From NCBI GenBank assembly GCA_023898425.1, contig CP060222.1, forward strand, positions 900,001 to 932,000: a stretch of 32,000 nt of DNA, given 5' to 3'. Every line of letters begins with the position of its first letter. The first letter of the stretch is position 1. Under the pieces are notes generated by a model. That model did no database searches and was not told the origin of the DNA. It worked only from the letters and a program-made list of their open reading frames with translations. The position numbers were made by a program, and so were the translations under genes. Positions 4,201 through 20,067 of the stretch are shown in pieces. The DNA comes from Candidatus Saccharimonadota bacterium. Its GTDB lineage: Bacteria > Patescibacteriota > Patescibacteriia > 2-12-FULL-60-25.

Positions 4201-5245
4201 GGTTATTGCGATTAATAACACGACGATAAAGATCATTGAGATCTGAGGTCGCAAAGCGTCCACCGTCGAGAGCCACCATCGGACGTAGGTCTGGTGGGAT
4301 CACTGGTAAGACCTTTAAGACCATCCAGGATGGATCAATTTGATTTTGTACGAGTGATTTCAAAAGCTTCAAACGACGCGTAAGTTTATCGTGTTTTGCT
4401 TCTGATGCATCTTTAAGTGCTTCGCTGAGATTAGCAACAGTTGCCTGAAGATCAATGGAGCTCAAAAGCGCATTAACAGCTTCTGAACCGATTTTTGCTT
4501 CAAAAACATGACCGTACTTTAGCGAAAGTTCGTGATATTCGGTTTCTGTAAGAATCTTAAGAGGTTTAAGATCTTTGAGCTCTTTATCGGCGATATCAAA
4601 GTCCGCATCAAGTTCTTCGAGACGGCGCGTTTGTTCTTCTTGCGCTTTGTCCATCTCTTTGTTCAATTTTCCAGCATCCCAGCTTTGCTCGGTTGCTTGC
4701 TTTTGAAGACGTTCGCGATTACGTTCGCCTTCTGATTCGATGCCTTTGCGTTTGCCTTTATACTCGGCGCGTACCATTTCTACTGTTTGCTCACGAAGAG
4801 TTTCGTCAACAGCCGTGATAATGAATACAGTGAAGTAAATCACTTTTTCGAGTGATTGAATGGACATGTCGAGCACCATACCGATTTTGGATGGCACAGA
4901 ACGCAAGAACCAAATATGTGTAACAGGCGCTGCAAGCTCAATGTGACCCATACGTTCGCGACGAACGAGTGAGTGCGTGACTTCAACGCCACATTTGTCA
5001 CAAATAATGCCTTTGTAACGAATCTTCTTATACTTACCACAATAACACTCCCAGTCTTTTGACGGACCGAAAATTTCTTCAGCAAAGAGACCGCTCTTTT
5101 CTGGTTTTTGTGTGCGGTAGTTAATGGTCTCCGGTTTGGTGACTTCACCATAAGACCAGCCGCGAATCACCTCAGGAGAGGCGACGCGCAAGCGGATAGA
5201 ATCAAAGTCCGTGGACTTGATATGTTCCGTGTGGAAATAGGCCAT
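1259..5245 (-). CDS. rpoC: DNA-directed RNA polymerase subunit beta-prime
   Basis: 1328-aa ORF with the catalytic NADFDGDQM motif, an N-terminal Zn-finger ([23 protein letters not shown]), and position directly after rpoB. Confidence 0.97.
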
Positions 5246-8918: not shown

Positions 8919-9030
8919 ATTCTCGATTAAAAGTTGGTGTATAGCATTGCAGTGAAAGGGGATCAATCTTTCACGAAAGCCGTGACAGGAGTCTGCGCAG
9001 ACACCTGTCAAGCCGCGTGGTTTCGTGCGG

Positions 9031-9059: not shown

Positions 9060-9218
9060 GCGAATGGTTATAACGAACCTTTTTGTCAATTTTGGCTGTA
9101 GAAAGTCAAAATTGTGCTTTTTCACTATAGAAATAAAAGCGATTATCCACAGAGTCATTACAGGACCCTTTATTAACGATCGAGTCGTGTTATAGGATGA
9201 ATAGTGACAACACGTATG

Positions 9219-9247
9219 TTGACAATAATACTGTTTTAGTATATATT
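9219..9247 (+). promoter_or_regulatory. near-consensus sigma70 promoter P1
   Basis: TTGACA (9219-9224), 17-nt spacer, TATATT (9242-9247). Confidence 0.6.
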
Positions 9248-9310
9248 ATGCAGGCACATTTCTCATTTTCGGCGAATTGCCAGAAAGAAGGTCCCGTGGA
9301 GGAATTGATC

Positions 9311-9985
9311 ATGAAGAACGGTGTGTGGAAGCACAAGCCCCCGACCGAGAAGATCCCCAAGCAGACCATCCGGCATCACGCCACCTTCCGTCGACTGGAT
9401 ATCTGGGAGACCCGTGAAAACGAACGCAACGCGTTCAACGGAGATTCGGCCGAACTTCAGCGGAAAATGATCCGCTTGGAAGATCAGCTCGAGGCTGGAT
9501 ACATGGACGAAGAGTCCATCCTCAAGGCGCTCGAGCGCATCACTCGTGAGATCAAAGATCTGATCAACGAGGGCAATCGGATCCTCTCGAACCAGAGAGG
9601 CTACCTTGGTCTCGCGCTGGAACTGGATACCATCTACATCCAACTCCAGACATGGAAGACCTGGATCAAGCCCCTGAAACGCCAACTGCGCAAGCAGAAG
9701 GCCACGGTCTTCATCATGAAGATGAAAAAGGCAGAACGCGACCTCGACGTGTTCGACCCCACTCACGCCCCGCAGATGTGGCGCGCCAAGCTGATGCTTC
9801 CGCGCAAGCCGGGTCGCTGCGGGTACAAGAGCGCGCACTACTTCATCCCGGGCAAGCACAAGCACACCCGGGTTGAGCGGTCCTTCGTCGAAGAAAGCCG
9901 CTACGGCAAGAAGGGCCAGCGCTACAGCGCGGCTCGCAAAGAGCGCGAAGACGAGCGCATGACGCTCATCAGCCAAATGGCCTAG
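9311..9985 (+). CDS. orphan protein A (224 aa), coiled-coil-like middle, basic C-terminal module shared with protein B
   Basis: GGAGGA SD at 9298-9303, 7 nt before the ATG at 9311. GC3-biased frame. The track start at 9197 lies in the AT-rich promoter, so I moved the start. Confidence 0.6.
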   Translation: MKNGVWKHKPPTEKIPKQTIRHHATFRRLDIWETRENERNAFNGDSAELQRKMIRLEDQLEAGYMDEESILKALERITREIKDLINEGNRILSNQRGYLGLALELDTIYIQLQTWKTWIKPLKRQLRKQKATVFIMKMKKAERDLDVFDPTHAPQMWRAKLMLPRKPGRCGYKSAHYFIPGKHKHTRVERSFVEESRYGKKGQRYSAARKEREDERMTLISQMA

Positions 9986-10003
9986 CACTTTTCAACACTG
10001 CTG

Positions 10004-10046
10004 AATCCCCCACTCACTGCTGAGTTGGGGGATTTTGCGTTTTTTA
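10004..10046 (+). terminator. intrinsic terminator after protein A gene
   Basis: AATCCCCCACTCA / TGAGTTGGGGGATT stem followed by TTGCGTTTTTT. Confidence 0.65.
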
Positions 10047-10073
10047 GACACTGTGTTTATGACAATTAAAATA

Positions 10074-10102
10074 TTGACAAATTATTATAAATAAGCTATC
10101 TT
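10074..10102 (+). promoter_or_regulatory. near-consensus sigma70 promoter P2
   Basis: TTGACA (10074-10079), 17-nt AT-only spacer, TATCTT (10097-10102). Confidence 0.55.
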
Positions 10103-10123
10103 GTACCGGTACATTTTAGGCGA

Positions 10124-10633
10124 ATGTCGCCAGATTGGAGTCTAATGTCGAGCAACGAGAAGTCCTGGAACGACATGTCGATGGATGAGCCCCTCGATGA
10201 CGCGGGGTATAACCCCAGTCTATTCGAGGACTTCGACTTCGATGATTTCGACGATCATCATGAGTACGATGATCATTTCGAAGATACCTTCAGGGATGCC
10301 TTCGACGAGTTCGAAGACTACCCCAAGGAGACCGCCTCCTACATCGACAAGCTCGAGGAGGAGCGCAAGGACTGGGAGTTCGAGGTCGAAGCATGGGCAG
10401 AACAGCTCGAACTTCTCGATCCCACTCTGGATCCGAAGATGTGGCGCGCACGCGAAGGCTGTGGCACCAATTGCTTCAACTTTGTGCCTGGCACGGGCAA
10501 GAAGCTTGACGTCCAGTCGTGCCGCAACTACGGTCATCGCTCCGGCTACAAGCCCCGTCTCCGCAATAAGGAGCGGATGCGTGAACGCGAGATCTGGCGC
10601 GAACGTCAGCTCGAACAGGCCTTCAGCGCCTGA
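10124..10633 (+). CDS. orphan protein B (169 aa), extremely acidic N-terminal half, C-terminal module paralogous to protein A
   Basis: GC3-biased ORF. An alternative start at ATG 10145 is preceded by GGAG. Shares DPTxxPxMWRA and CGxxxxxF(I/V)PGxxK motifs with protein A. Confidence 0.6.
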   Translation: MSPDWSLMSSNEKSWNDMSMDEPLDDAGYNPSLFEDFDFDDFDDHHEYDDHFEDTFRDAFDEFEDYPKETASYIDKLEEERKDWEFEVEAWAEQLELLDPTLDPKMWRAREGCGTNCFNFVPGTGKKLDVQSCRNYGHRSGYKPRLRNKERMREREIWRERQLEQAFSA

Positions 10634-10643
10634 CACTACTACA

Positions 10644-10697
10644 AGCCCCGCCTCTAACCACATTCTGTGGCTTAGAGGCGGGGCTATTTGTGTTGTG
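10644..10697 (+). terminator. intrinsic terminator after protein B gene
   Basis: 14-bp perfect stem AGCCCCGCCTCTAA / TTAGAGGCGGGGCT followed by ATTTGTGTTGTG. Confidence 0.6.
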
Positions 10698-10709
10698 TAA
10701 ACAATCATC

Positions 10710-10738
10710 TTGACAGAATGTCGATAATAGGCTATATT
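10710..10738 (+). promoter_or_regulatory. near-consensus sigma70 promoter P3
   Basis: TTGACA (10710-10715), 17-nt spacer, TATATT (10733-10738). Confidence 0.55.
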
Positions 10739-10771
10739 CTCACCGTGTTTACCCACGTCGCCGATGGCGAA

Positions 10772-11293
10772 ATGGTCGGTCAGGTTTCGCGCCTGGCTCA
10801 ATACAAGAACCTTTTGCTCCGTGATCAACTCACGGACGATCCCAAGCTTCGGATGTTGGGCGAGCTCGCACTCGTGACCGACATCACGAAGAAGCTCTTC
10901 GCAGAAAAGGGTGCCAATCCACCCTTGAAACTGCTCTACACTCTTCTATCGTTCACGTCTGAGATGGACGAGAATGATGAAGACTGTTGGGTGCAGTGGG
11001 AGGAACTCCCCGAAGAGAAGCGTCTTCTCACGGAACTCCGTTGGGATCTCGAGGCCATGGAGCCCAACTCGTGCTACTGCGCGCGTTGCCGTGGTGTCGA
11101 GGAAGACGACGTCCCGCCCCTCAAAGTCTTCACGCCTACCGCAGACATGCGCTTGGCGGCGAAGAGGGAGAAAACGCTCCGCAATGGCGGGCGGCGGGTA
11201 CGGCGGAGCACGAATGAGGACGAGGCTGAAGAGCTGACTCCGAAGCGTAGCCTTCGCGACTTTCGTCGCGGAGCCGACTCCGTTTCCTGGTGA
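10772..11293 (+). CDS. orphan protein C (173 aa from ATG 10772; start uncertain)
   Basis: GC3-biased ORF downstream of P3. The track start at 10688 lies upstream of the promoter. Contains a CYCARC cysteine cluster and a basic tail. No family recognised. Confidence 0.5.
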   Translation: MVGQVSRLAQYKNLLLRDQLTDDPKLRMLGELALVTDITKKLFAEKGANPPLKLLYTLLSFTSEMDENDEDCWVQWEELPEEKRLLTELRWDLEAMEPNSCYCARCRGVEEDDVPPLKVFTPTADMRLAAKREKTLRNGGRRVRRSTNEDEAEELTPKRSLRDFRRGADSVSW

Positions 11294-11300
11294 GAAACTG

Positions 11301-11352
11301 ACCCTGTCCCAAACTGTGATCTTCATGGTTTGGGACGGGGTCTTGTAATTTC
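11301..11352 (+). terminator. intrinsic terminator after protein C gene
   Basis: ACCCTGTCCCAAAC / GTTTGGGACGGGGT stem followed by CTTGTAATTTCT. Confidence 0.55.
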
Positions 11353-11386
11353 TGCATACTTTCTCCCTCGATGCCCCCTACCCCTG

Positions 11387-11416
11387 CCCCTTCTACCTTT
11401 GTGGAGGGGGTTTTAT
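11387..11416 (+). terminator. second terminator-like hairpin
   Basis: CCCCTTC / GGAGGGG stem followed by GTTTTATGG. Confidence 0.35.
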
Positions 11417-11438
11417 GGTAAAAATAAACCCTATATAC

Positions 11439-11467
11439 TTGATTTTTTGTCAAAAATATGCTATACT
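11439..11467 (+). promoter_or_regulatory. sigma70 promoter P4a
   Basis: TTGATT (11439-11444), 17-nt spacer, TATACT (11462-11467). Confidence 0.45.
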
Positions 11468-11525
11468 TATATCGTAATACAGTGACGTATGGATGCACTT
11501 TCAACCCATATATTAGACATATAAC

Positions 11526-11537
11526 GCTAATATTAGC
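11526..11537. promoter_or_regulatory. perfect 12-bp palindrome, candidate operator
   Basis: GCTAATATTAGC is its own reverse complement. A related half-site, CGCTAATGTTA, lies about 30 nt downstream. Both sit between P4a and P4b. Confidence 0.3.
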
Positions 11538-11583
11538 CAAATATAATAAATAATCGCTAATGTTATAAAAGAAAAGCATTAAC

Positions 11584-11612
11584 TTGACAGTTTATACGGT
11601 ACATGGTATAGT
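11584..11612 (+). promoter_or_regulatory. near-consensus sigma70 promoter P4b with extended -10
   Basis: TTGACA (11584-11589), 17-nt spacer ending in TGG, TATAGT (11607-11612). Confidence 0.6.
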
Positions 11613-11618
11613 AATACG

Positions 11619-11763
11619 TCGAGGATGAAACAGCCTTACATTTAAAGAGCTAGTCACAGTGGAGAGCTTGGACAGCAATGAACGAACTTACCGGCCATTA
11701 GGGCTAGGTGTAGCGATTATTGTTTTGCTCAATTCACTTGTGACGTTATCAACGTCATTTTTT
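11619..11763 (+). ncRNA. candidate small RNA of about 145 nt (P4b to first terminator)
   Basis: Predicted TSS is about 7 nt after the -10. No ORF. The region ends in a TGACGTT-ATC-AACGTCA hairpin plus TTTTTT (11741-11763). Confidence 0.35.
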
Positions 11764-12247
11764 GTTGTCTTGATCGTTTTGGAGGAGGCAAGCAGATGAA
11801 CGATGTGAGAATCCGGTTTCGACTGGGATCTCTCATCTGCAATCTGTTACGGATTCAACCGCTTCGGCGGATTTGAGCCACTTCTCGTTGGATCTTTATC
11901 CGATGAGTCGCCGCCTCTAAAACGATCATCGCAACAGAGAAAGACGGGTGGAGAAGAACCTCACAGGCAACCGAACATGGTGCGTCTGTGAGCGGTAGGC
12001 AAAATTAGACTCGGTGGTTTCGACTGCCAACTCTAACATGTAGCCCACCACACGCAGGCAATGCCCTCGGGTATTCGCCCGCCTCTTCTTCAACCGTCTT
12101 TCTCTCGTTCACCATCATCCTGCTTTCATTTCTATCTCTGATCCTTTTGCTCCACGAATGCGTTCGTGCCAGCCAAGAGTTGATCGAGAAAGAAATGAGA
12201 GCGGGACGTGCGATTTTGCACCTTACAGTCCGCTCCAAAGGCAAAAG
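11764..12247 (+). ncRNA. long GC-balanced non-coding stretch; candidate structured RNA or 5' leader of the downstream operon
   Basis: No plus-strand track ORF of 60 codons or more starts between 10988 and 12146. The sampled line at 11881 is about 48% G+C, unlike the AT-rich spacers. Helices: cUUCGg hairpin 11859-11870, CTCACAG/CTGTGAG 11960-11992, GGTGG/CCACC 12013-12049, and a hairpin at 12057-12079. Confidence 0.35.
11796..11876 (+). CDS. 26-codon sORF (MNDVRIRFRLGSLICNLLRIQPLRRI) with strong SD; possible leader peptide or small toxin-like peptide
   Basis: GGAGGAGG at 11781-11788 lies 7 nt before the ATG at 11796. Too short to judge coding potential. Confidence 0.25.
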   Translation: MNDVRIRFRLGSLICNLLRIQPLRRI

Positions 12248-12481
12248 ATGTCCAAGAAGATCACCCTTTCGATCTGTGCCTTCTTCTTCACCGTCGTCGG
12301 CGCGATGCACTTCATCGATGTGCCGAACACCAACGAGGAGGAGATCGCGGCGATCAAGAACGGTCGCATCTGCCACCGCGAGAGGTGCACCTTCCTCAAC
12401 GGGCCCTTCACGGGATACGTGAGGTACCAAGTGGATGAAACAGGGTTCATCTATGTCTCTAACGGGACAGCGATGAACTGA
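12248..12481 (+). CDS. small membrane or secreted protein (77 aa)
   Basis: ATG at 12248. N-terminal hydrophobic segment KKITLSICAFFFTVVGAMHFI. GC3-biased frame. Weak SD (AAAGG). Confidence 0.5.
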   Translation: MSKKITLSICAFFFTVVGAMHFIDVPNTNEEEIAAIKNGRICHRERCTFLNGPFTGYVRYQVDETGFIYVSNGTAMN

Positions 12482-12484
12482 GAG

Positions 12485-12623
12485 TCTGAATCCGACATCA
12501 CGAATACTCGTGCTCTGTCGGACTCCCAATCTTGATCAGAACGAATGTTGTGACCAAGACATGGAGTTACAATCCTGCTCTCACTTTTTTGACCGACATC
12601 GCTCGGTACAAAAAGCGAGAGCG
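12485..12623 (+). repeat. intergenic repeat copy R1 (139 nt)
   Basis: Near-identical to 13551-13688. Begins with the hairpin TCCGACA-T-CACGA-ATAC-TCGTG-CTC-TGTCGGA immediately after the upstream stop codon. Confidence 0.85.
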
Positions 12624-12671
12624 GGAACCCCAAGTACAAATTCGTACATTCACACCCGTTCAAAGGAAACT

Positions 12672-13544
12672 ATGACCAAAATCAATTTCGTGCTCGCGTC
12701 TAACCACACCAACCTCGCCACTGCCATCGAAGGCAAGGCGAGCGCCACGGTGGAGGCTGAGTTCGGCGACATCACCGTCGCTGGCTCGGTGCTCACCATG
12801 GCGCATCACGGCGTCAATGCGGGTAACCGCGCGCCGTGCGCGTACCCCAACGGGTGCGCGGAAGGCGTCGAGGTGGTGGGTTTGTCCCACTTCGACCTCG
12901 ACACCCTCGGTGGGTGTGCGGCCGTCATCGGTCGCAAGCCGGAGGCCGAGAGCTTCTGGATTCTCTCCGAGTTCGTGGACCTTAATGGTCCGCACAAGCT
13001 CGGTGTGAGCGGCGCGTCCGACGAGGACATCCGCCGCCTCAACGCCTTCTGGGCGTGGAGCGAAAAGAACCGAGTGTTCGCCAACCGCGACGGCTCGGTG
13101 TCCGACGTGACCGACAAGGTCATCGAGGGCATCGAAGCGCTCGAGAGGATCCTCGCCGACGATGAGCAGATGCTCGTCGCGGGCGACGAGTTCAAGGCGA
13201 AGGGCGACAAGCTCAACGCCGAGAGCTTCGTCGAGTACTACGAGGATCTCCTCGTCCGAGTTTCGCCGAGCTTCACCAACCACCTCTACGTCGCCCCCGA
13301 CGGAAAGGTGGCCAAGGCCGTCATCGCCTTCAACACCCTCAACGGCTCGATCACGATCTCGTTCGCGGATGCGCCCAAGGGCACGAACGCGCGCGACATC
13401 GTGCAGAAGCTGTGGGGGCCCGAAGCTGGCGGTCACGCTGGCATCGCTGGCAGCCCGCGTGACAAGCGGTTGAACCTCGATGACCTGAGCGAAGCGCTCA
13501 GCGCGACGATGCTCGCGCTCGACGAAATGGACAACATTTCGTAG
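12672..13544 (+). CDS. divergent DHH/DHHA1-like phosphoesterase (290 aa), assignment tentative
   Basis: SD AAAGGAAA before the ATG at 12672. SHFDLDTLGG resembles DHH motif I (H..D.D..G). C-terminal GGHAGIAGSP resembles the DHHA1 GGGH..A.G motif of NrnA/RecJ-type enzymes. A canonical DHH triad is not obvious. Confidence 0.45.
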   Translation: MTKINFVLASNHTNLATAIEGKASATVEAEFGDITVAGSVLTMAHHGVNAGNRAPCAYPNGCAEGVEVVGLSHFDLDTLGGCAAVIGRKPEAESFWILSEFVDLNGPHKLGVSGASDEDIRRLNAFWAWSEKNRVFANRDGSVSDVTDKVIEGIEALERILADDEQMLVAGDEFKAKGDKLNAESFVEYYEDLLVRVSPSFTNHLYVAPDGKVAKAVIAFNTLNGSITISFADAPKGTNARDIVQKLWGPEAGGHAGIAGSPRDKRLNLDDLSEALSATMLALDEMDNIS

Positions 13545-13550
13545 AGCAAC

Positions 13551-13688
13551 CTGGATCCGACATCACGAATACTCGTGCTCTGTCGGACTCCCAATCTTGA
13601 TCAGAACGAATGTTGTGACCAAGACATGGAGATAAATCCTGCTCTCACTTTTTTGACCGACATTGCTCGGTACAAAAAGCGAGAGCGG
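13551..13688 (+). repeat. intergenic repeat copy R2 (138 nt)
   Basis: Differs from R1 by one A/G, one C/T, and TTACAA versus ATAAA (a 1-nt indel). Confidence 0.85.
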
Positions 13689-13727
13689 TACGTGCAATCA
13701 CGCACCTTAAAACACGCTCCGGAGATT

Positions 13728-13937
13728 ATGGAAAATTCCATTTCCCGGTCCGAGGCGCGCCACGTGCTCGCCTCATACATGAACGAGGGTGCCCGGCACC
13801 CCCTCTTCACGGAGGCGTGCGCGATCTGTCGCACGACTCCGGAGGCGGTCGAGGCCGCGCGCAAAAGCGTGCGTGGCATCGAGCGCTCGTTCAAGGGAGT
13901 GATCCTCACTCCCTTGGGCGGGCGTCGTCGCAACTAG
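13728..13937 (+). CDS. orphan protein (69 aa)
   Basis: GGAG SD 3 nt before the ATG at 13728. GC3-biased. The track start at 13575 lies inside repeat R2. Confidence 0.45.
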   Translation: MENSISRSEARHVLASYMNEGARHPLFTEACAICRTTPEAVEAARKSVRGIERSFKGVILTPLGGRRRN

Positions 13938-13959
13938 CGACACGACCTCGCACACCTCA

Positions 13960-14000
13960 CTGGATCCGACATCACGAATTCTCGTGCTCTCTCGGACTCC
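13960..14000 (+). repeat. partial repeat copy R3 (hairpin module only, 41 nt)
   Basis: CTGGATCCGACATCACGAATTCTCGTGCTCTCTCGGACTCC matches the first 41 nt of R1/R2 with 2-3 substitutions. Confidence 0.75.
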
Positions 14001-14062
14001 TCCTCTTGTTTATGACATGTCGTCGTAAGCAAGAACGGGAGATATCCCAGAAAGGTTAAGCC

Positions 14063-14329
14063 GTGGAAACAATAAACTCAAATATCAAACGCGGGCGAGA
14101 ACTCATCCATGACGCTGGCCGTCTGGGTGGTCTCGTGGAGAGCGGGTTTCCTCAGTCGAGGGATCTCGCAAATAAACTGCGTCGCATCGCCACGAAGAGC
14201 GATGACGTGCACAGCTGCATCCTTGCCTACGTTCAGGCACAGGGCAACAAGCTCACGGGCACAGAGCGGCGTGGCTTGCAGATTCTTCTTACTCATGAAG
14301 AATTTGCCCAGATCGTGAGCTCAAACTGA
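14063..14329 (+). CDS. orphan protein (88 aa), GTG start
   Basis: GAAAGG SD 7 nt before the GTG at 14063. Ends in tandem TGA TGA stops. Confidence 0.45.
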   Translation: METINSNIKRGRELIHDAGRLGGLVESGFPQSRDLANKLRRIATKSDDVHSCILAYVQAQGNKLTGTERRGLQILLTHEEFAQIVSSN

Positions 14330-14514
14330 TGAGCAATCTGAGTAGAGGCGAAAGACAGTCACTCTGATTTCGCTCCCTCAATCCGTCCATGATTCATTCG
14401 TGGATGAAGAAGGGAAAAATATCTACGCAGCTACCAACAAGGAGGTTGGTGGCGTCGCGGGTATTTTTGCCCGAAAACAAAACAGGCGTAAGGTCTGAGA
14501 AAGTTAAGGTCGTC

Positions 14515-15123
14515 ATGAGCATTGCCATCGCAATAGCCATCGTTCTCATGGAGGAATTCAGTGTGATGATTGGTCAACAGCTGATCATCCAAAGCATGAT
14601 CGACCGCATCGACAAGGTGCGTCGCCATGCTCTCAATCACATTAACGAGCCGAAAATTCTGCTCGATGAAACGTGGTTGATCCCAACGCATGAGTTGTGC
14701 GACGTGCTAGGCGTAGACTCACTGGAAGAGATCCTCTCTTCCAAAATCCGAGGTATTGCGCTCGCACTCGCAGGAAAGAAAGAGTATCATCCTCGTTCGA
14801 TCGCGGGTGGTGCTGAGCAACTCATGGAGTTGCTCCGACCGGCGGCTGATGAAGAGCAGGCGGAAGATGAACGTAAATTACGCAATCGGATTCTCGGTCT
14901 CGCCGCGCGCTATCTGTCAGCATCCGTTGAAGAACGGACAAAGATACTGATTTCTTTGGAGGGCAGTCGAACGCGGGCGCTTAGTGACACTGAGGAGGTA
15001 ACCGAACTCGTACGACTCAGGATCAACGCTGATCACGAGTATGAGCGAGTCTCAAAACAACTCCGTAAACTTCAGGTAAAAAACGGATCACTCCTGAACC
15101 GGAATGTGATCCTCGATGCCTGA
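14515..15123 (+). CDS. orphan protein (about 200 aa; start ambiguous among 14515, 14548 and 14563/14566)
   Basis: Long ORF, helical and charged sequence. GGAGGA at 14550-14555 favours the 14563/14566 starts. No family recognised. Confidence 0.45.
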   Translation: MSIAIAIAIVLMEEFSVMIGQQLIIQSMIDRIDKVRRHALNHINEPKILLDETWLIPTHELCDVLGVDSLEEILSSKIRGIALALAGKKEYHPRSIAGGAEQLMELLRPAADEEQAEDERKLRNRILGLAARYLSASVEERTKILISLEGSRTRALSDTEEVTELVRLRINADHEYERVSKQLRKLQVKNGSLLNRNVILDA

Positions 15124-15231
15124 GTGAACAAGATCTCACGCTCCACACTCATCTCTACCGAGAAGAGGTACGGAGACTCAAAAACAATTCGCTCGAGAAA
15201 TACGAAATCAAGAGCAGCAACAGGAGGCCTC

Positions 15232-15408
15232 ATGAGCTACGTTAGCGCCGCGTTCACCGTGGCATACAATCGCACCTGTGAAGATCTGACCGAAGAAACG
15301 GTCAAGATCGACACAGCACGTCTCGCTGAAAAGCTCGAAGAGAGCGGCGAGTACGACATGGCCATTCGGCTGCGTCGTTCGTCTCGGCCCCCTGGGCCGA
15401 GCAACTAG
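15232..15408 (+). CDS. orphan protein (58 aa)
   Basis: AGGAGG at 15222-15227 lies 4 nt before the ATG at 15232. The track ORF starts earlier, at GTG 15124. Confidence 0.4.
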   Translation: MSYVSAAFTVAYNRTCEDLTEETVKIDTARLAEKLEESGEYDMAIRLRRSSRPPGPSN

Positions 15409-15417
15409 ATGAATCTA

Positions 15418-15460
15418 CTCGGAGGTGTACTATTGCGAACTGCTTTAGTACACCTCCGAG
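15418..15460 (+). other. 13-bp perfect hairpin after the 58-aa ORF (terminator-like, no T-run)
   Basis: CTCGGAGGTGTAC (15418-15430) pairs with GTACACCTCCGAG (15448-15460). Confidence 0.6.
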
Positions 15461-15476
15461 ACCCCCTATTACACTA

Positions 15477-15580
15477 AGCGATATGGAGGAGGCACCTCAA
15501 CAACTTGTTGGGGAAGACAGGCTATTCCTCGGCTGCGGCTGAGCAATTCTCTCCCCCGTCCCATCACCTCCATATCGCTT
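15477..15580 (+). other. long-range 14-bp helix enclosing a 76-nt structured insert (leader of the 398-aa ORF)
   Basis: AAGCGATATGGAGG (15477-15490) pairs perfectly with CCTCCATATCGCTT (15567-15580). Internal hairpins: CAACA-ACT-TGTTG and CTCGGC-TGCG-GCTGAG. Confidence 0.5.
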
Positions 15581-15668
15581 CGTGGAATATCGAAGCAACC
15601 CTCCTCGGGTTTAGAGGAAAAAACGTTCCTTAAAATCCGCAAAGCGGAAGAAAAAGAAAGAGAAAAAA

Positions 15669-16865
15669 ATGTCCCTCAACTTCAGCATCACCAGGAATCC
15701 CAATATCCTTTCGGCGGCAGCCGGTCGTGAGGTGAGTCAGGAGGAGACGAATGACATCGTCGCTCCCCTGGACCACCACTGCGGAGCTCAGTACGAACTT
15801 CGCAACAACCGCCTTTTGCGGCGGCTACAGCTCCAGATCTTCGCCTGCTTGTTGCTGGCGAAGGAAGAGATGTTCGACATGAGCGATGAGCTCATCGAAA
15901 GCAACGGCCTCGACCCCGTTCTTGCGGGGTTCATGAAGGGGCAGGTCCTCAACCAGCGCAGCACGAAGTTGCTCACCATGGTCGACAACCAGGGCGAGCT
16001 CTTCACGCCCCCCATGTTCGTGATGAACATGAACGACCTGACGAAGCCCGGTCGCAAGGATCGTCCGGTCCGCCGTGTGTGGGTGGACGCTCACAACTTC
16101 GATCGCGTCACGGCCAGCAATGGCCAGGTCTCGTCGCGACCAAACCGCGTTGGTACGTTCATGCAACGCGTCAACACGCACGGCACCTTCGAGAACGGTG
16201 GTGAGCGCGACGCGCTCATCATGGGCTTCAGGCCTGAGTTCGAAGAGCGTCGTGACACGGCCGTCATCACGAGCAAGGATCAGGTTCTGAAGAGCTACAT
16301 CCTCCTGGTCGTCGGCGCCAACCTCGATCTGCTCATGCAGATCGTGGACATCGCCGGCGACAGCGTCGCGCCGATGTTCTTCGGTGGCGAGGTAGACCCC
16401 AAGATGGCCTACTTCGGTCCCGTGGAGGTCCAAGACACGAAGGTGTCGACCGACCCGAAGCTCAAGATGGACGAGATCCGCGAGAAGGTGAAGAGCACGA
16501 AGCTGACTCACACCATGGCTCAGGACCTCGAGGGCGTCGTGATCGACGACGAAGACGAGTCGCCCGAGGATAGCTCAGACGACGTGAGCGACGACCTCAG
16601 CGCCAGTGATGGCAACGAGGACGAGACCTCCGATGCCTCCTCGACCGAGGAGAGCGATGGTGACATCGCTCCGCCGGTCGCCAACGAGAAGCGGAGCGAC
16701 GCTCCGCTGACGGCGAAGCAGAAGCGGATGCTCGAGAACAGCGAAGAAGGCAAGACGCCCTCCACTCCTCCCGCCACGACGAAGAAGCCCAAGAAGGCTT
16801 CGACGCCTAGGCAGAAGAAGGGGCTCGAAGACCTGGAAAACGTTCAGCTTCCCAGCGCCGAGTGA
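15669..16865 (+). CDS. orphan protein (398 aa) with acidic Ser/Asp-rich tail followed by a Lys-rich end
   Basis: GC3-biased ORF preceded by a purine-rich leader, GAAGAAAAAGAAAGAGAAAAAAATG. No family recognised. Confidence 0.6.
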   Translation: MSLNFSITRNPNILSAAAGREVSQEETNDIVAPLDHHCGAQYELRNNRLLRRLQLQIFACLLLAKEEMFDMSDELIESNGLDPVLAGFMKGQVLNQRSTKLLTMVDNQGELFTPPMFVMNMNDLTKPGRKDRPVRRVWVDAHNFDRVTASNGQVSSRPNRVGTFMQRVNTHGTFENGGERDALIMGFRPEFEERRDTAVITSKDQVLKSYILLVVGANLDLLMQIVDIAGDSVAPMFFGGEVDPKMAYFGPVEVQDTKVSTDPKLKMDEIREKVKSTKLTHTMAQDLEGVVIDDEDESPEDSSDDVSDDLSASDGNEDETSDASSTEESDGDIAPPVANEKRSDAPLTAKQKRMLENSEEGKTPSTPPATTKKPKKASTPRQKKGLEDLENVQLPSAE

Positions 16866-16912
16866 CCTCACCGCTCCGATTAGCAACTGCTAATCGTTGA
16901 GCAAAAAAACTG

Positions 16913-16958
16913 ACCCCCAGTGTATACCGTATGGTGTACTCTGGGGGTTTTCGTTTTT
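16913..16958. terminator. bidirectional intrinsic terminator at the right island boundary
   Basis: ACCCCCAG...CTGGGGGT extended stem flanked by AAAAAAA upstream and TTTTCGTTTTT downstream. It lies between convergent genes. Confidence 0.7.
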
Positions 16959-16966
16959 CTCTCTTT

Positions 16967-17668
16967 TTATTGCTGTGTACTTGTCGCTGTTAATGCACGC
17001 TCATACATCACACGCCTTACCTCTACCGTCTCTGAACCACGACGACGTTTGGCGGTAATAACCAACATCGTTGTTCCTTGTGGAATACGAATAGTTTGTT
17101 CAAAATCCCCGTCAGGCGAAACCGCTGCTGCTGCGCCATTGATCATCACCAATGCACCGACATCCGTTTTACCTTTAATAAATACTTCCGGCTGATCAAG
17201 CCTCGCACCATCGATAGGCGTTACAATTTGTAGCTCAGGCGCGCTTGTAATGGTGCGTGCTTGATACACAACATATCCGCCAAGCGCCAAAATAAAGAGA
17301 GCAAATCCTGCTGCGGCAAATAAACGTGGCGTAACAAGAAAAGCGCTAGCGGCTACTTTTACCGGTCGAGGTAAAAATTGCGAGGCGTCTTTTTCAATTT
17401 TTCGTAACCGTAATCCATCACGGTATTTGTGTAAGTAATAACTCTCGCTTACACCAAAACGCGAGACATACATTTTTAATAATCGCTCTACGTATGCAGG
17501 ATCTGGTAACTCTGACCAACGTTCGCCTTCGAGCGCACGAATAAAACCAGGGGTCAGCTTTGAAAGCTTGGCTGCTTCTTCGACGCTTAATCCCGCGCGC
17601 TCACGTAACTCAATAAGATCTGGACCAAGCGCTGCTGTTCCGTTTACTTTTTTTAAGATAAAAGCCAT
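16967..17668 (-). CDS. RodZ-like helix-turn-helix membrane protein
   Basis: N-terminal HTH (LRERAGLSVEEAAKLSKLTPGFIRALEG), a single TM segment (LFAAAGFALFILALGGYVVY), and an extracytoplasmic C-terminal domain. Confidence 0.6.
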   Translation of the reverse strand: MAFILKKVNGTAALGPDLIELRERAGLSVEEAAKLSKLTPGFIRALEGERWSELPDPAYVERLLKMYVSRFGVSESYYLHKYRDGLRLRKIEKDASQFLPRPVKVAASAFLVTPRLFAAAGFALFILALGGYVVYQARTITSAPELQIVTPIDGARLDQPEVFIKGKTDVGALVMINGAAAAVSPDGDFEQTIRIPQGTTMLVITAKRRRGSETVEVRRVMYERALTATSTQQ

Positions 17669-17671
17669 AGA

Positions 17672-19990
17672 TTAGAATCCTTCTTCGTCACCGTCATCAT
17701 CTGTATTCATGTCCATCGTCGCTGCGGTAGCGGCAACGGCTGCTGACAATGCTGGATCTTGAGTGCGCGTAAATTCTGCCTGCAAAATCTCACGTGGTTT
17801 TGCACCATCTGATGGACCAATGAAGCCCTCTTCTTCTAAGAGGTCGAGAATACGTGCGGCGCGTGCATACCCAACCTTAAGACGACGTTGTAACAATGAC
17901 GCGGATGCTTTACCAGCGCGTAAAATCTCTTCTTTTGCTAAATCAATTAATGGATCTGAGTCTGCCTCGTCGCTTCCCCCACCTCCAAAAGCAGTAGCAT
18001 TTGCCGAAGGACGTTCGGTAACTGTGTAATCATAATCAACCGGTTCATAATGTGATTTTACAAACTCAACAACTTTTGCGATTTCAGCTTCTGAGACAAA
18101 GGAGCCTTGAATACGCTTAGGCATTGGCAACTCTGCCGTCGACAATAACATATCACCACGACCAAGAAGTTTTTCTGCACCTTGTTGATCAAGAATGGTG
18201 CGAGAGTCTGTTGCGGAGGCGACGGCAAAGGCAATACGACCAGGGATATTTGCTTTGATCAAACCCGTAATAACATCAACCGAAGGACGCTGTGTTGCCA
18301 GAATCAAGTGAATACCGACTGCGCGTGACATTTGAGCCAAACGTACAATAGGACCTTCAACTTCTGCAGCAGACGTCACCATGAGATCAGCCAACTCATC
18401 AATGATGATGACGATATATGGCATCTTTTCTTGAGCATAGCGTTGGTTAAACGTCGCTAAGTCACGGACGCCTTTTTGTGCCAAAAGATCATAACGACGA
18501 TCCATCTCACGCAATGCCCATTTGAGTGCGTTTACCGTTTCTGGGACCTTGGTGATAACCGGTGTGAGCAAGTGTGGAATACCGTTATAGTTTTGTAACT
18601 CAACACGTTTTGGATCAACCATGATGAGTTTTACATCATCAGGACCAAGTCCAAAGAGGTACGACATGATAATCGTATTGAGACAAACAGACTTACCAGA
18701 ACCTGTTGCACCAGCTACCAGCATATGCGGCATACGGATCAAGTCCGCTACCCATGGCTTGCCTGAAACGTCTTTACCCAAAACAAAGGTAAGTGGGCTT
18801 TTACGTTCTTTAAATTCTTTTGAATCGATAAGCTCACGTAAGCCAACTGTAGCGATAGTTTGATTTGGCACTTCGACACCGACCATCGATTTGCCTGGGA
18901 TCGGTGCTTCGATACGAATAGGATGCGCCGCCAAGGCGAGAGCTAAATCATTATGTAATGCCGTAATTCGCGAAAGCTTAATCCCTTCTGATGGTTTAAA
19001 GGCAAATTGCGTCACAGTAGGACCTACTGATACTTCGTTCATCTCAACAGGGATACCAAAGTTTTCGAGCGTGCGACGAATCACTTCGCGATTATGAACA
19101 ATATCCCCTGCTTGAGGGCGTGAATCACGTTTTTCAAGTAAATCTGGCGTGACTTCGATAAGTGGCTGTCTACGACGTTTTGTCTTTACAGGAGCCGCTT
19201 CATCATCTTCTACATCTTCATCCTCCTCTTCGGATTCTTCTTCGTCTGATTCTTCCTCCTCATCACTCTCCTCTTCTTCCTCTTCATCAATAGCCTCCTC
19301 CTCTTCTAAGTCGTCGCTTGGCTCTTCTTCGACAGCTTCTTCTGAATCATACAAGTTATAAACCGTCTTATCTGCTTGTTCGCGTGCTTCTGATCTTGCT
19401 TTTATCCAGTGGATAATTGGTAAAACCATGGCACGACAAAGCGCCGCGATAGACTTCCAAATTACATCAATAACAAAGAGTAGCTGTTTGAGCGAAACAT
19501 TAAATCCTAGCAAAAGTGACAAGATAAAGAGTGCAAAAAAGACAATGATTGCTCCAGCACTCCCAAGCATCCCAACAAATGGGTCTGCTAACATCATGCC
19601 GAGTTTACCGCCCGCATTCATTAATGCGCTGTCAGCAATAGGCAATGTGCCTTGATCGGCAAACGTAATAACATGAATAAGTGGATTTAATGAAAGAAAA
19701 ACTAACAAGAATCCAATGACATTACGAAAATGCAGCACAAGACGATCCGGAGCAAGAATGTGATACATCCAAGCAAACAACAAAAAGGGCACAAAAAGCT
19801 TATCCCAACCAAAAACATAGGCCATTGCCTCGCTTAAAGCGCGACCAAATGCACCTGCAAAATCAAAAAAACCCAATAACATCAGGGTTGATAATGCAAA
19901 CAAGAAAACAAACCCGACAGCCTTGCGTGTATCGGGGTCTAACGACAAATCAAGAGATTGCTTCCTTCTTCTGGCCATGGTTGTGCTCAT
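17672..19990 (-). CDS. ftsK: DNA translocase FtsK
   Basis: Walker A GATGSGKS, Walker B IIIDELADLM, and a gamma-domain-like LLQRRLKVGYARAARILDLLEEEGFIGP. N-terminal TM segments. Start at 19990 or 19978; the track start at 20056 overlaps the ugd promoter. Confidence 0.9.
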   Translation of the reverse strand: MSTTMARRRKQSLDLSLDPDTRKAVGFVFLFALSTLMLLGFFDFAGAFGRALSEAMAYVFGWDKLFVPFLLFAWMYHILAPDRLVLHFRNVIGFLLVFLSLNPLIHVITFADQGTLPIADSALMNAGGKLGMMLADPFVGMLGSAGAIIVFFALFILSLLLGFNVSLKQLLFVIDVIWKSIAALCRAMVLPIIHWIKARSEAREQADKTVYNLYDSEEAVEEEPSDDLEEEEAIDEEEEEESDEEEESDEEESEEEDEDVEDDEAAPVKTKRRRQPLIEVTPDLLEKRDSRPQAGDIVHNREVIRRTLENFGIPVEMNEVSVGPTVTQFAFKPSEGIKLSRITALHNDLALALAAHPIRIEAPIPGKSMVGVEVPNQTIATVGLRELIDSKEFKERKSPLTFVLGKDVSGKPWVADLIRMPHMLVAGATGSGKSVCLNTIIMSYLFGLGPDDVKLIMVDPKRVELQNYNGIPHLLTPVITKVPETVNALKWALREMDRRYDLLAQKGVRDLATFNQRYAQEKMPYIVIIIDELADLMVTSAAEVEGPIVRLAQMSRAVGIHLILATQRPSVDVITGLIKANIPGRIAFAVASATDSRTILDQQGAEKLLGRGDMLLSTAELPMPKRIQGSFVSEAEIAKVVEFVKSHYEPVDYDYTVTERPSANATAFGGGGSDEADSDPLIDLAKEEILRAGKASASLLQRRLKVGYARAARILDLLEEEGFIGPSDGAKPREILQAEFTRTQDPALSAAVAATAATMDMNTDDDGDEEGF

Positions 19991-20067
19991 CCTAACACAA
20001 AAGGTGTTCAGAGAAAAAGCTCCTTGAACCTTGTCATTTATCGGCACTCCCTGCACTATAATGTTCT

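Follow-up and report, generated by a model that had tools for sequence, protein, structure and literature searches.

A GC3-rich variable gene island with predicted hyperstructured messages in a Patescibacteria chromosome

What is a 7.7-kb block of mostly unknown genes, GC-rich in its coding parts and AT-rich in its spacers, doing between rpoB and a RodZ-like gene of an ultra-small bacterium (Patescibacteria)? The question arose from a first-pass annotation of a 32-kb stretch of a Candidatus Magasanikbacteria (Patescibacteria) chromosome (the window), which singled out positions 9197-16960 as an orphan island of about 11 foreign-looking open reading frames (ORFs) under host-type promoters, inserted at the rpoB/rodZ junction. 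The observation was confirmed: a compositionally distinct block is present at 9.2-16.95 kb. The interpretation as foreign ORFs wired to host signals was only partly supported, since the GC excess proved to be confined to synonymous positions and to be accompanied by a large excess of predicted RNA structure.

Composition, junctions and transcription units

The coding sequence of the island has a GC content of 58.6% and a GC3 of 0.76, whereas ten backbone genes gave 44.4% and 0.37, which puts the backbone at about 44-45% rather than the 40% first estimated. The spacers fall to 29-38% GC at about 9100-9250, 10000-10150 and 11400-11650. The same junctions were found in NCBI, JGI, ENA and Logan assemblies, which excludes the chimeric join that had been named beforehand as a possible refutation. 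That the block was inserted between rpoB and the RodZ-like gene was not shown; all three lineages available, at 97.5-99.8% backbone identity, carry the island. No integrase, transposase, tRNA, Rfam family or flanking direct repeat was found in it, and searches with PADLOC, Pfam, NCBIfam and PHROGs gave nothing significant.

A promoter scan returned 17 promoter-like sites against 4.7 ± 2.1 expected. Four of them, at 9219, 10074, 10710 and 11584, consist of an exact TTGACA box, a 17-nt spacer and a TAnnnT −10 box, and these are the only exact matches on either strand of the 32 kb. They therefore do not match the backbone promoters, as had been stated, but are better than any backbone promoter in the window. 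The features described below all lie on the + strand, except for the closing hairpin, to which no strand is assigned. There are 10 ORFs (O1-O10), arranged in three single-gene units (O1-O3), each with a consensus promoter and an intrinsic terminator, and one operon of 5.3 kb.

Promoter P1 (9219-9247, TTGACA-17-TATATT, 11 of 12 matches) lies inside the originally called ORF 9197-9985; the likely start of O1 is the ATG at 9311, behind a GGAGG. O1 (9311-9985) encodes 224 amino acids, a coiled-coil plus a basic, Cys/His-containing C-terminus; its GC3 is 0.80, its only relative is 99% identical, and its dN/dS is 0.20 against L051 (L051, L007 and L075 denote the island loci of other strains). It is an orphan and a C-terminal paralog of O2, with which it shares the DP.MWRA motif as a 44-nt repeat at 77% identity, and it is followed at about 10006-10045 by an intrinsic terminator hairpin with a T-run. 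Promoter P2 (10074-10102, TTGACA-17-TATCTT) precedes O2 (10145-10633; 162 amino acids with an acidic N-terminus; dN/dS 0.38), which ends in a terminator (inverted repeat 10633-10696). Promoter P3 (10710-10738, TTGACA-17-TATATT) precedes O3 (10772-11293; 173 amino acids), a protein with conserved ends and a hypervariable middle, which is followed by two terminators (11300-11342 and 11386-11411). O3 is 100% identical in L007, but its tblastn identity to L051 is only 44% (52% in the MAFFT alignment), with a dS of about 2.

Promoter P4 (11584-11612, TTGACA-17-TATAGT with an extended TG) is the only promoter-like site on the + strand before the end of the island, no other being found between 11584 and 17700. 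At 16912-16955 lies a hairpin with flanking A- and T-runs (local z −7.4 on the + and −5.1 on the − strand for 16900-17099), which is the likely two-way terminator closing the operon and the convergent RodZ-like gene.

A near-invariant leader followed by exchangeable cassettes

Behind P4 lies the ORF-free region of about 630 nt (11619-12247) that had been noticed at first; its longest ATG ORF is 30 amino acids. What had escaped notice is that this RNA is the most conserved part of the island. Its first 487 nt (11619-12105) form a predicted structured leader with three domains at about 11653-11744, 11763-11936 and 11937-12104. The minimum free energy is −207.1 kcal/mol against −144.2 ± 5.9 (z −10.6), whereas the reverse strand gives −175.9 (z −6.1), a difference of 31 kcal/mol in favor of the + strand. 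Across seven assemblies the leader differs at only 3 positions, two of which (11963 and 11989) form a compensatory A-U to G-C pair, while the 190 nt upstream differ at 11; the leader thus varies about ten times less than the adjacent spacer, although its near-identity could partly reflect a recent recombinational sweep rather than constraint. No Rfam match was found, even at E up to 5. Within the leader lies a putative 26-amino acid ORF (11796-11876), whose Shine-Dalgarno sequence (GGAGGAGG, 11781-11788) is buried in the predicted 37-nt stem 11753-11789/11910-11946.

Variation between strains begins exactly at the end of the leader, all differences starting at 12106. The segment 12105-12247 contains a first long hairpin (the B module), a small hairpin and the Shine-Dalgarno sequence ahead of O4; Rfam gave only hairpin-type chance matches at 12105-12215. 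The private repeat family reported for the island is real: a 37-nt core occurs three times with at most 2 mismatches, against 0 expected, and lies inside 140-nt units (copies 1 and 2) and a partial copy. It was not seen at first that these repeats mark cassette boundaries. Copy 1 (12486-12626; z −7.3) forms three predicted hairpins, A at 12490-12526, a middle one, and B at 12571-12626; copy 2 (13551-13688; z −6.8) is 98% identical to it; in the partial copy 3 (13960-14043) the A hairpin is conserved and the rest has diverged.

The first cassette, O4 (12248-12481), encodes a 77-amino acid protein with an N-terminal hydrophobic segment; it is present in L051 at 92% amino acid identity and is replaced in L007 and L075 by a 125-amino acid multi-pass membrane protein (O4′). 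O5 (12672-13544; 290 amino acids; GC3 0.87) is flanked by the two 140-nt repeat units and is absent from L051 and L075, the deletion lying exactly between the repeats. All four combinations of O4 or O4′ with O5 present or absent exist. O6 (13728-13937; 69 amino acids; GC3 0.81) is 96-97% identical in L051 and L007, whereas O7 (14063-14329; 88 amino acids) has deeply diverged alleles, with 98% identity to L007 but 67% to L051 (dS 1.36). O8 (202 amino acids from 14515, an upstream ATG at 14389 being possible) and the abutting O9 (15232-15408; 58 amino acids), together spanning 14515-15408, co-diverge: O8 is 62-63% and O9 69-74% identical to L007 and L051, while O10 and O1-O3 are 100% identical to L007. 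No relatives of the pair were found outside the species group. A predicted hairpin at 15467-15589 (23-nt arms, 91% complementary) buries a GGAGGAGG upstream of O10; it resembles the leader stem and shares a direct repeat with 11775-11790. O10 (15669-16865; 398 amino acids; dN/dS 0.31) consists of a globular N-terminal domain of about 290 amino acids, an acidic Ser/Asp/Glu tail and a Lys-rich end; its AlphaFold2 model was unusable (pLDDT 32).

Most of the ORFs are near-orphans, as first stated. O1, O8 and O10 have relatives only within the same species group (88-98% identical for O10), plus one 28%-identical protein for O10 among 1.84 billion representatives. The genes are real but weakly constrained, with dN/dS values of 0.13-0.50 against 0.01-0.07 in the backbone, and the O3, O7 and O8 alleles have dS values of 1.4-2.2 next to segments with a dS of 0.03.

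O5 is the exception. The first-pass annotation had pointed to a weak DHH/DHHA1 resemblance, which is borne out by the predicted structure (AlphaFold2 pLDDT 95.8): the top Foldseek hits are NrnA, Pde2, TM1595 and RecJ-like proteins (PDB entries 5o4z, 8iu7, 8ioo, 9r7o and 9lq9 at E 4e-5 to 4e-3), and viral DHH phosphohydrolases were also hit. The protein has 824 homologs. H45, H46, H73, D75, D77, D103, H108 and G253-G254-H255 are invariant.

Synonymous GC and excess predicted folding

That the island looks foreign rests on GC alone. GC1, GC2 and amino acid composition equal those of the backbone (0.599/0.399 against 0.582/0.380; GARP 0.257 against 0.257), whereas a truly GC-rich relative shows 0.632/0.429 and a GARP of 0.295. 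The anomaly is therefore synonymous. It is coupled to excess predicted folding: in 200-nt windows the local dinucleotide-shuffle z averages −3.51 on the sense strand, −2.61 on the antisense strand (paired p = 3e-4) and −0.45 in the backbone. Synonymous-codon shuffles gave z −3.4 (O2) to −6.0 (O3), against −0.3 to −2.2 for five backbone genes. Since the synonymous shuffle also gave z −6.2 for the 5′ part of rpoC, this test alone is not specific, and the claim, which is based on thermodynamic prediction throughout, rests on its agreement with the local dinucleotide test. GC-rich housekeeping genes in a 62%-GC relative gave z near 0, indicating that GC3 itself is not the cause.

The island is not a one-off. 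In 10 of 13 Patescibacteria O5 loci an exact consensus promoter is followed by an ORF-free leader of 270-1800 nt with z −6 to −14, and most of the Patescibacteria homologs of O5 examined lie in similar GC-rich, hyperstructured islands. Such islands are clear in the scans of L013, L025 and L027 (handles of further O5 loci, as are those that follow) and the signal is weaker in L028 and L050, while L029 and L030 are GC3-rich without strong excess structure. All five islands checked have private intercistronic hairpin repeats. The comparison loci were all found via O5, which restricts the generality to O5-containing islands. The leaders of different lineages are not alignable, only L050 and L031 sharing a core, and a shared 5′ motif was not significant, so that a single RNA family is not shown.

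From these results we propose, with about even confidence, that the block is a hypervariable accessory-gene island that runs on the cell's own sigma-70-type signals. The analysis shows the layout of the units, the third-codon-position nature of the high GC, the excess folding (in silico only) and the fact that the conserved leader and the hairpin modules are the places where cassettes are swapped, lost and gained between strains. The rest is inferred: that transcription starts at the promoter at 11584 and runs through the leader and the promoterless cassettes O4-O10; that the GC3 enrichment is largely a consequence of, or is maintained together with, selection for very stable transcript structure and is not simply the footprint of a GC-rich donor; that cassettes are exchanged most simply by homologous recombination; and that on the RNA the same modules probably act as processing or stabilizing hairpins and as Shine-Dalgarno-masking switches. 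The cargo, one widespread DHH-fold phosphoesterase, likely acting on short or signaling nucleotides, plus fast-evolving small proteins, points to a conflict or host-interaction role, which is the weakest step of the inference.

Other explanations and comparison with known systems

The foremost alternative, which we consider doubtful, is a genomic island recently imported from a GC-rich bacterium, phage or plasmid, with unameliorated donor composition and host-type promoters acquired or selected afterwards. The compositional jump is large, most ORFs are orphans and O5 is present or absent between strains. O5 homologs sit on GC-rich contigs at 53-72% identity (L017/L049, L021, L055), the O5 tree shows recent transfer between lineages, with near-sister genes in backbones of different GC, and the L013 island has raised GC1, GC2 and GARP, as expected for import. 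In the window, however, GC1, GC2 and amino acid composition are those of the backbone, no mobility gene, tRNA or flanking repeat was found, and the island is syntenic in all three lineages available. Import does not predict that native sequences fold far better than their own synonymous shuffles, which the genes of a truly GC-rich relative do not. No donor was found for O1, O8 or O10 in collections of 5.8 and 1.84 billion proteins.

GC-biased gene conversion at a recombination hotspot, in which frequent recombination in this variable locus would drive third positions to G or C with the extra structure as a by-product, is unlikely. It would agree with the restriction to third codon positions, with the extreme mosaicism (neighboring segments differ 50-fold in dS), with the shuffling of cassettes between strains and with the presence of RecA and ComEC in the backbone. 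But biased conversion changes composition, and both null models preserve composition, yet the native sequences still fold much better; the sense strand folds better than the antisense strand; and the least recombined, most conserved part, the leader, is the most structured although it is only 49% GC.

Still less likely is an integron-like cassette array without a nearby integrase (CALIN-like), in which the hairpin repeats would be single-strand recombination sites, the leader end at 12105 would act like an attI site and a common promoter would express the cassettes. In its favor are promoterless, same-orientation cassettes behind one strong promoter, variation that begins exactly at 12105 and cassette loss exactly at the repeats. 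Hairpin A is an imperfect inverted repeat with a 3-nt bulge, whose cores, ATCCGAC and GTCGGAC, match the attC R″/R′ consensus at 6 of 7 positions, and similar CCGAY...RTCGG hairpins recur in other islands. However, no tyrosine recombinase lies in the 32 kb or in the called genes of the related contigs; hairpin A, of about 34 nt, is shorter than known attC sites and lacks the GTT triplet; the 140-nt direct repeats at 97-98% identity suffice for RecA-dependent deletion; and the allelic replacements of O3, O7 and O8 look like homologous exchange, not site-specific insertion.

A decayed prophage, or a phage-derived early region or moron cluster kept by the host, is about as unlikely. Strong promoters and terminators surround small unknown genes, and the inter-gene hairpins resemble the RNase III sites of the phage T7 early operon. 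O5 relatives occur on viral contigs and in one GenBank phage, the Foldseek hits include jumbo-phage DHH phosphohydrolases, and O1 has a weak match to the C-terminal part of a large serine recombinase family (phrog_95, E 5e-4). But there are no structural, replication, lysis or integration genes and no significant PHROG match, searches of viral contigs with the O8 protein alignment and with one 31-nt leader pattern found nothing, and position and content are the same across lineages.

An assembly or binning artefact, conceivable for a metagenome-assembled genome with sharp GC steps, is in practice refuted by the independent assemblies: the right junction (O10, terminator, RodZ-like gene) recurs in at least six independent assemblies from Logan, JGI and NCBI, and the left part (rpoB side through O1-O3 and the leader) recurs in ENA, Logan and JGI contigs. 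The AT-rich spacers inside the island carry the promoters, and a GC-rich O5 homolog also sits in the 36%-GC genome of a cultured isolate, Shimazuella kribbensis. The block has no hallmark of a prophage, IS or ICE, in agreement with the first-pass annotation, and with similar blocks in other Patescibacteria it looks like an undescribed way of packaging accessory genes.

Setting, genes and strain variation of the island

The window is a strain variant of contig JAGQLA010000001.1 of assembly GCA_020429715.1. Its proteins are labelled Candidatus Magasanikbacteria, a Patescibacteria/CPR lineage. The source environments are anaerobic-digester or wastewater-type samples such as SRR14234115-125, SRR15882951, SRR12358676 and SRR14932560, and JGI 3300010349 and 3300009779. 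The backbone order is ruvC, rpoC, rpoB, [island], an HTH_25 RodZ-like gene, ftsK, ugd, an epimerase, comEC, a lipoprotein-like ORF, recA, ychF, tig and rnpA. FtsK (17672-20056, minus strand) carries a run of about 50 residues of Glu and Asp between its membrane and motor parts, and the lipoprotein-like ORF between comEC and recA (23992-24612, plus strand; 206 aa) has no family match. The right junction of the island recurs in independent Logan, JGI and NCBI assemblies and its left part recurs in ENA, Logan and JGI contigs, and a chimeric join is therefore excluded.

What the first-pass annotation had observed, a block of GC-rich genes with AT-rich spacers and consensus promoters, proved to be real. 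Island coding GC is 0.586 and GC3 is 0.76, as compared with 0.444 and 0.37 in the backbone, and the spacers fall to 29-38% GC. Four exact TTGACA-N17-TAnnnT promoters lie at 9219, 10074, 10710 and 11584 and are the only exact matches anywhere in the 32 kb; the scan found 17 promoter-like sites against 4.7 expected, and none on the plus strand between 11584 and the end of the island. Since terminators follow O1, O2, O3 and O10 (the ten ORFs of the island are numbered O1 to O10), the island has four transcription units: O1, O2, O3 and a 5.3-kb unit made of a leader plus O4-O10. No integrase, transposase, structural or conjugation gene, tRNA, Rfam family or flanking direct repeat of the kind that borders a prophage, an ICE or an IS element was found.

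Searches of Pfam, PHROGs, PADLOC and NCBIfam with all ten ORFs gave nothing significant, the only leads being DHHA1 below its cut-off for O5 and a coiled-coil match of O1 to phrog_95, which we regard as spurious. O5 (12672-13544) has at least 824 homologs, mostly in Patescibacteria at 50-80% identity, and also occurs on viral contigs and in one phage record. With a 20-sequence alignment AF2 models it at pLDDT 95.8, and the model has the two-domain DHH + DHHA1 fold of phosphoesterases that cut short or signalling nucleotides. The Foldseek probability is 0.93-1.00 for the 15 DHH-family hits with E below 1e-3, including the TM1595 pApA phosphodiesterase, NrnA/Pde2, a RecJ-like protein, DhhP, and NrN with SAM-AMP; jumbo-phage DHH phosphohydrolases are also matched. 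The TM-scores are low (0.21-0.37), which might most simply be explained by a different angle between the two domains in the model and in the crystal structures. At the sequence level Pfam stays below its gathering score (DHHA1 16.6 bits against a cut-off of 25.9, and no DHH hit), and a profile search of PDB sequences found nothing.

With the DHH/DHHA1 phosphoesterases of the NrnA, Pde2, TM1595, DhhP and NrN type the predicted O5 structure shares the two-domain fold, a Gly-Gly-His motif in the C-terminal domain, a cluster of invariant His and Asp residues and a similar size (about 290-320 aa), but the sequence identity is only 11-16%. As read from the alignment alone, H73-x-D75-x-D77, D103, H45-H46 (as AHH) and G253-G254-H255 are invariant in 20 sequences, and their order, AHH first and then H-x-D-x-D, looks altered from the canonical one (DxD, D, DHH, D and GGGH). 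From sequence, the invariant His, Asp and Gly-Gly-His residues suggest an active enzyme.

O1, O8 and O10 have relatives only in the same species group, except that O10 has a single 28%-identical relative among 1.84 billion representatives. A search for relatives of O8 found none in viral contigs and returned only the already known contig from metagenome contigs. Sequence searches of PDB with O1, O8 and O10 were not significant. A weak match of O10 to yeast exopolyphosphatase (E 0.13) suggested that O10 might be a second DHH protein, but a profile-profile comparison with O5 rejected this (probability 0.2%); the AF2 model of O10 from four sequences reached a pLDDT of only 32 and is unusable. An apparent replacement of the 398-aa gene by a 348-aa gene in the loci L003-L005 turned out to be an antisense ORF call on 99.7%-identical DNA. 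All ORFs are under purifying selection, but weakly (dN/dS 0.13-0.50 against 0.01-0.07 in the backbone); they are therefore real genes.

Against a lineage with 97.5% backbone identity (L051), O1 and O6 are nearly identical (dS 0.03-0.04), whereas O3, O7 and O8 are only 44-67% identical, with saturated dS of 1.4-2.2. Against GCA_020429715 (L007), O1-O3 and O10 are identical, but O8 and O9 are 62% and 69% identical. O8 and O9 (14515-15408) abut, with a 4-nt overlap in L007, and diverge together (62% and 69-74% aa identity) while flanking genes are identical between the same strains, which suggests an interacting pair such as toxin and immunity. O4 is replaced by an unrelated 125-aa membrane protein in L007 and in a further strain locus, L075, and O5 is missing from L051 and L075, cut out exactly between two 140-nt direct repeats; all four O4/O5 combinations exist. 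The repeats are predicted to fold into three hairpins (z about -7) and sit between the stop codon of one cassette and the ribosome-binding site of the next.

A predicted structured leader RNA and a synonymous composition shift

From the inferred transcription start at about 11619 to 12105 the ORF-free RNA is predicted to fold at -207 kcal/mol, whereas shuffles give -144 +/- 6 (z -10.6), and the opposite strand folds 31 kcal/mol worse. Across seven assemblies only three positions vary, two of which form an A-U to G-C compensatory pair. The 190 nt just upstream differ at 11 positions in L051, and variation resumes at exactly 12106. In Rfam 15 there is no hit at gathering score in the window; between 8700 and 17000 only chance-level hits up to E = 5 were found, none of them in 11619-12100. 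ARAGORN also found nothing, and a scan of viral contigs with a leader DNA pattern was without result.

In the predicted fold the second domain of the leader buries a GGAGGAGG ribosome-binding site (11781-11788) in a 37-nt stem (11753-11789 / 11910-11946), and seven nucleotides downstream of that site a 26-codon ORF begins (11796-11876; MNDVRIRFRLGSLICNLLRIQPLRRI). A look-alike hairpin precedes O10. The arrangement, a small ORF whose strong Shine-Dalgarno is masked by long-range pairing in a highly structured, conserved message, recalls translation-masked type I toxin messages (hok/sok-like) or a regulatory leader peptide. A hok/sok-like locus also has a hydrophobic membrane-peptide toxin and an antisense RNA gene. 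By our reading the predicted peptide is cationic and amphipathic rather than clearly transmembrane, and on the minus strand only weak promoter-like sites (9 of 12 matches) lie at 11744 and 11569.

The interpretation in the first-pass annotation, foreign-looking ORFs wired to host-type signals, is supported only in part. The nucleotide composition does deviate from that of the genome, but GC1, GC2 and the amino-acid classes (GARP and FYMINK) equal the backbone, whereas a truly GC-rich relative differs in all of them, and the island is present in all three lineages available. The excess is coupled to predicted folding. Local 200-nt dinucleotide-shuffle z-scores average -3.51 on the sense strand and -2.61 on the antisense strand (paired p = 3e-4), as compared with -0.45 in the backbone. 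Every island ORF tested folds better than its synonymous-codon shuffles (z from -3.4 to -6.0), while five backbone genes gave -0.3 to -2.2. The first 1.5 kb of rpoC (1259-5245, minus strand), however, also gave -6.2 in the synonymous test although its local dinucleotide z-scores are ordinary, which is either real structure in rpoC or a weakness of that test when codon usage varies along a gene; we therefore rely on the agreement of both null models. Housekeeping genes of a 62%-GC relative, with GC3 about 0.8, give z near 0, and high GC3 alone therefore does not produce the effect. An ORF at the left edge of the window (5-373, plus strand; GC3 0.67, synonymous-shuffle z -5.8, no Pfam match) may be the end of another region of the same kind, to the left of ruvC.

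Similar islands around O5 homologs and what they may mean

O5 homologs are GC3-rich (0.62-0.97) inside backbones of 36-50% GC in most Patescibacteria loci. The same holds for the cultured firmicute Shimazuella kribbensis DSM 45090 (L035, 10001-10789), which in a 36%-GC backbone carries a single O5 homolog at 60% GC (GC3 0.76, synonymous-shuffle z -3.4); the anomaly is therefore not confined to metagenome bins or to Patescibacteria. In 10 of 13 Patescibacteria O5 loci an exact consensus promoter is followed by an ORF-free leader of 270-1800 nt with z from -6 to -14. Neighbouring GC-rich genes are predicted to be hyperstructured: in the O5 locus L013, MoxR, VWA and two unknown genes give z from -7.5 to -10.9, and the loci L025 and L027 reach down to -11.6. 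In the local scans the islands stand out clearly from flat backbones in L013, L025 and L027, whereas the signal is weaker and patchier in L028 and L050. The O5 tree shows the GC3-rich state across most of the Patescibacteria clade and some recent transfers between lineages.

A tblastn search with O1-O10 against the other islands hit only O5, and the islands therefore share architecture, not gene content. Each of the five islands checked has its own private intercistronic hairpin repeats; in L013 a 179-nt repeat flanks the O5 homolog, just as in the window. The hairpins of different islands (window 12490-12526; L028 9872-9929 and copies; L050 8413-8459 and copies; L027 about 8960-8985) share a CCGAY...RTCGG core. 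The leaders are not alignable, and nhmmer searches with the leader and all spacers against 40 other loci found nothing. The exception is two Magasanikbacteria leaders (L050 6650-6760 and L031 9340-9440), which share a core of about 130 nt with conserved unpaired stretches (CGCUCGYGAYAUYCCUACC and AGUAGUACCGAGUGCGU) and two stems kept by compensatory changes. This core is a candidate new RNA motif; its 17- and 19-nt conserved cores are absent from the window. A 5' leader motif seen by eye (GAUGA ... ACCUUAC ... GAGAGAG) was not significant against shuffles (7 of 10 sequences; the null reached 7 in 1 of 30 trials).

Recognisable neighbours of the O5 homologs are typical of nucleotide-centred conflict systems or RNA handling. 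They are a DEAH/HA2 RNA helicase in L025 (12881-14833), a Csx3-like protein with bpMoxR and VWA in L013 (11485-15668) and, in the uniformly GC-rich contig L049 (9167-12739), 2H-SAK and an M78 peptidase, which lie with AAA_28 next to the O5 homolog. A TrmB-family regulator is transcribed divergently from the leader promoter in three other islands (L013 7908-8813, L014 4811-5623, L050 5137-5940), but no such gene lies next to the island of the window.

What the analysis demonstrates is a chromosomal, strain-variable island with four host-type transcription units, a near-invariant leader predicted to be structured, a cassette array punctuated by hairpin repeats where exchange occurs, and a synonymous GC excess coupled to predicted RNA hyperstructure. 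From this we infer, but have not demonstrated, that the GC3 excess is maintained with, or by, selection for transcript structure, that the modules serve on DNA as anchors for homologous exchange and on RNA as processing, stabilising or translation-masking elements, and that the cargo serves conflict or host interaction. Import from a GC-rich donor, biased gene conversion and an integron-like mechanism each explain part of the data and may contribute, and O5 itself clearly moves between lineages. None of them, however, accounts for the folding excess over composition-preserving nulls together with backbone-like amino-acid usage.

A bolder reading, which we consider possible but rather unlikely, is that Patescibacteria carry a previously unrecognised class of gene islands in which whole transcription units, long leader and coding regions alike, are selected to be extremely folded RNA. 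In this view G or C would be driven into synonymous sites to achieve this, and a lineage-specific, near-invariant leader RNA of several hundred nucleotides would act as both expression platform and recombination anchor for a shuffling array of cassettes. One attractive purpose would be that such messages survive single-strand-specific ribonucleases unleashed during conflict, for example nucleotide-signal-activated RNases. This would fit the cargo of putative nucleotide phosphodiesterases (O5; a Csx3-like protein and MoxR-VWA in L013) and an RNA helicase (L025).

GC-rich patches in AT-rich genomes are routinely read as foreign DNA. Here the excess is purely synonymous and tied to predicted RNA folding, so that this inference can be wrong, and island-finding and contamination-filtering tools may be mislabelling such regions in Patescibacteria genomes. 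The data point to a testable and apparently widespread design, a consensus promoter, a very long structured leader and hyperstructured cassettes with private hairpin punctuation, in a huge, uncultured part of the bacterial tree where almost nothing is known about gene regulation or accessory functions. The analysis also provides a 487-nt candidate RNA for structural work, a large uncharacterised DHH-type enzyme family (more than 800 members and a confident model), and a natural system for asking whether message structure is selected for stability or nuclease resistance.

Comparison with known systems

Variable islands, cassette arrays and DHH enzymes are all known. The combination of third-position GC enrichment with predicted transcript-wide hyperstructure, very long structured leaders, private hairpin punctuation and recurrence across Patescibacteria was not found in Rfam or in four protein-family libraries, and a literature search, which was limited and is no proof of novelty, found no description of GC-rich or hyperstructured islands in Patescibacteria. 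We conservatively regard the island as a departure, in this combination, from systems already described, with a substantial chance that it represents a new class once expression and covariation data exist.

As in integron gene-cassette arrays and integrase-less attC clusters (CALINs), one upstream promoter is inferred to drive promoterless cassettes, all in one orientation, a structured imperfect-palindrome repeat follows each cassette, cassettes are present or absent between strains, and the boundary between the conserved platform and the variable array is fixed. However, no Phage_integrase hit was found among the island ORFs or among the called genes of the 20-kb flanks (an IntI next to the array is not required for a CALIN). 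attC sites are imperfect palindromes of about 55-140 nt with RYYYAAC ... GTTRRRY cores, whereas hairpin A of the repeat (12490-12526, with further copies at 13555 and 13964) is about 34 nt, and its cores, ATCCGAC and GTCGGAC, match this consensus at 6 of 7 positions and lack the GTT triplet. The repeats moreover extend into 140-nt near-identical direct repeats that include the next gene's leader, alleles appear to be exchanged homologously, and the platform is a 487-nt structured RNA rather than attI.

In the early operon of phage T7 a strong host-type promoter likewise drives a long polycistronic message, which is cut at inter-gene RNase III hairpins. In the island, too, stable predicted hairpins lie between the cistrons and could, if cleaved, define and stabilise individual messages, but the island is chromosomal, without phage genes, and the coding regions themselves are also predicted to be hyperstructured and are GC3-enriched.

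With flexible or hypervariable genomic islands and defence islands of bacteria the locus shares strain variability at a fixed chromosomal position, many genes of unknown function, deeply diverged alleles kept side by side and weak purifying selection. Such islands are usually AT-rich or compositionally unremarkable and carry recognisable defence or mobility genes, whereas this one has a third-position-only GC excess, excess predicted RNA folding, a conserved leader RNA and no PADLOC, Pfam or PHROG match.

The leader resembles the large structured bacterial noncoding RNAs (OLE, GOLLD, ROOL, HEARO, raiA) in being several hundred nucleotides long with a predicted multi-domain fold, in being very strongly conserved relative to its surroundings and in its association with variable or mobile DNA, as for GOLLD and ROOL. 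It differs in that it matches no Rfam family even at E up to 5, that its covariation support is one pair only, that it contains a small ORF with a masked ribosome-binding site, and that it appears to be the 5' leader of an operon rather than a free-standing RNA.
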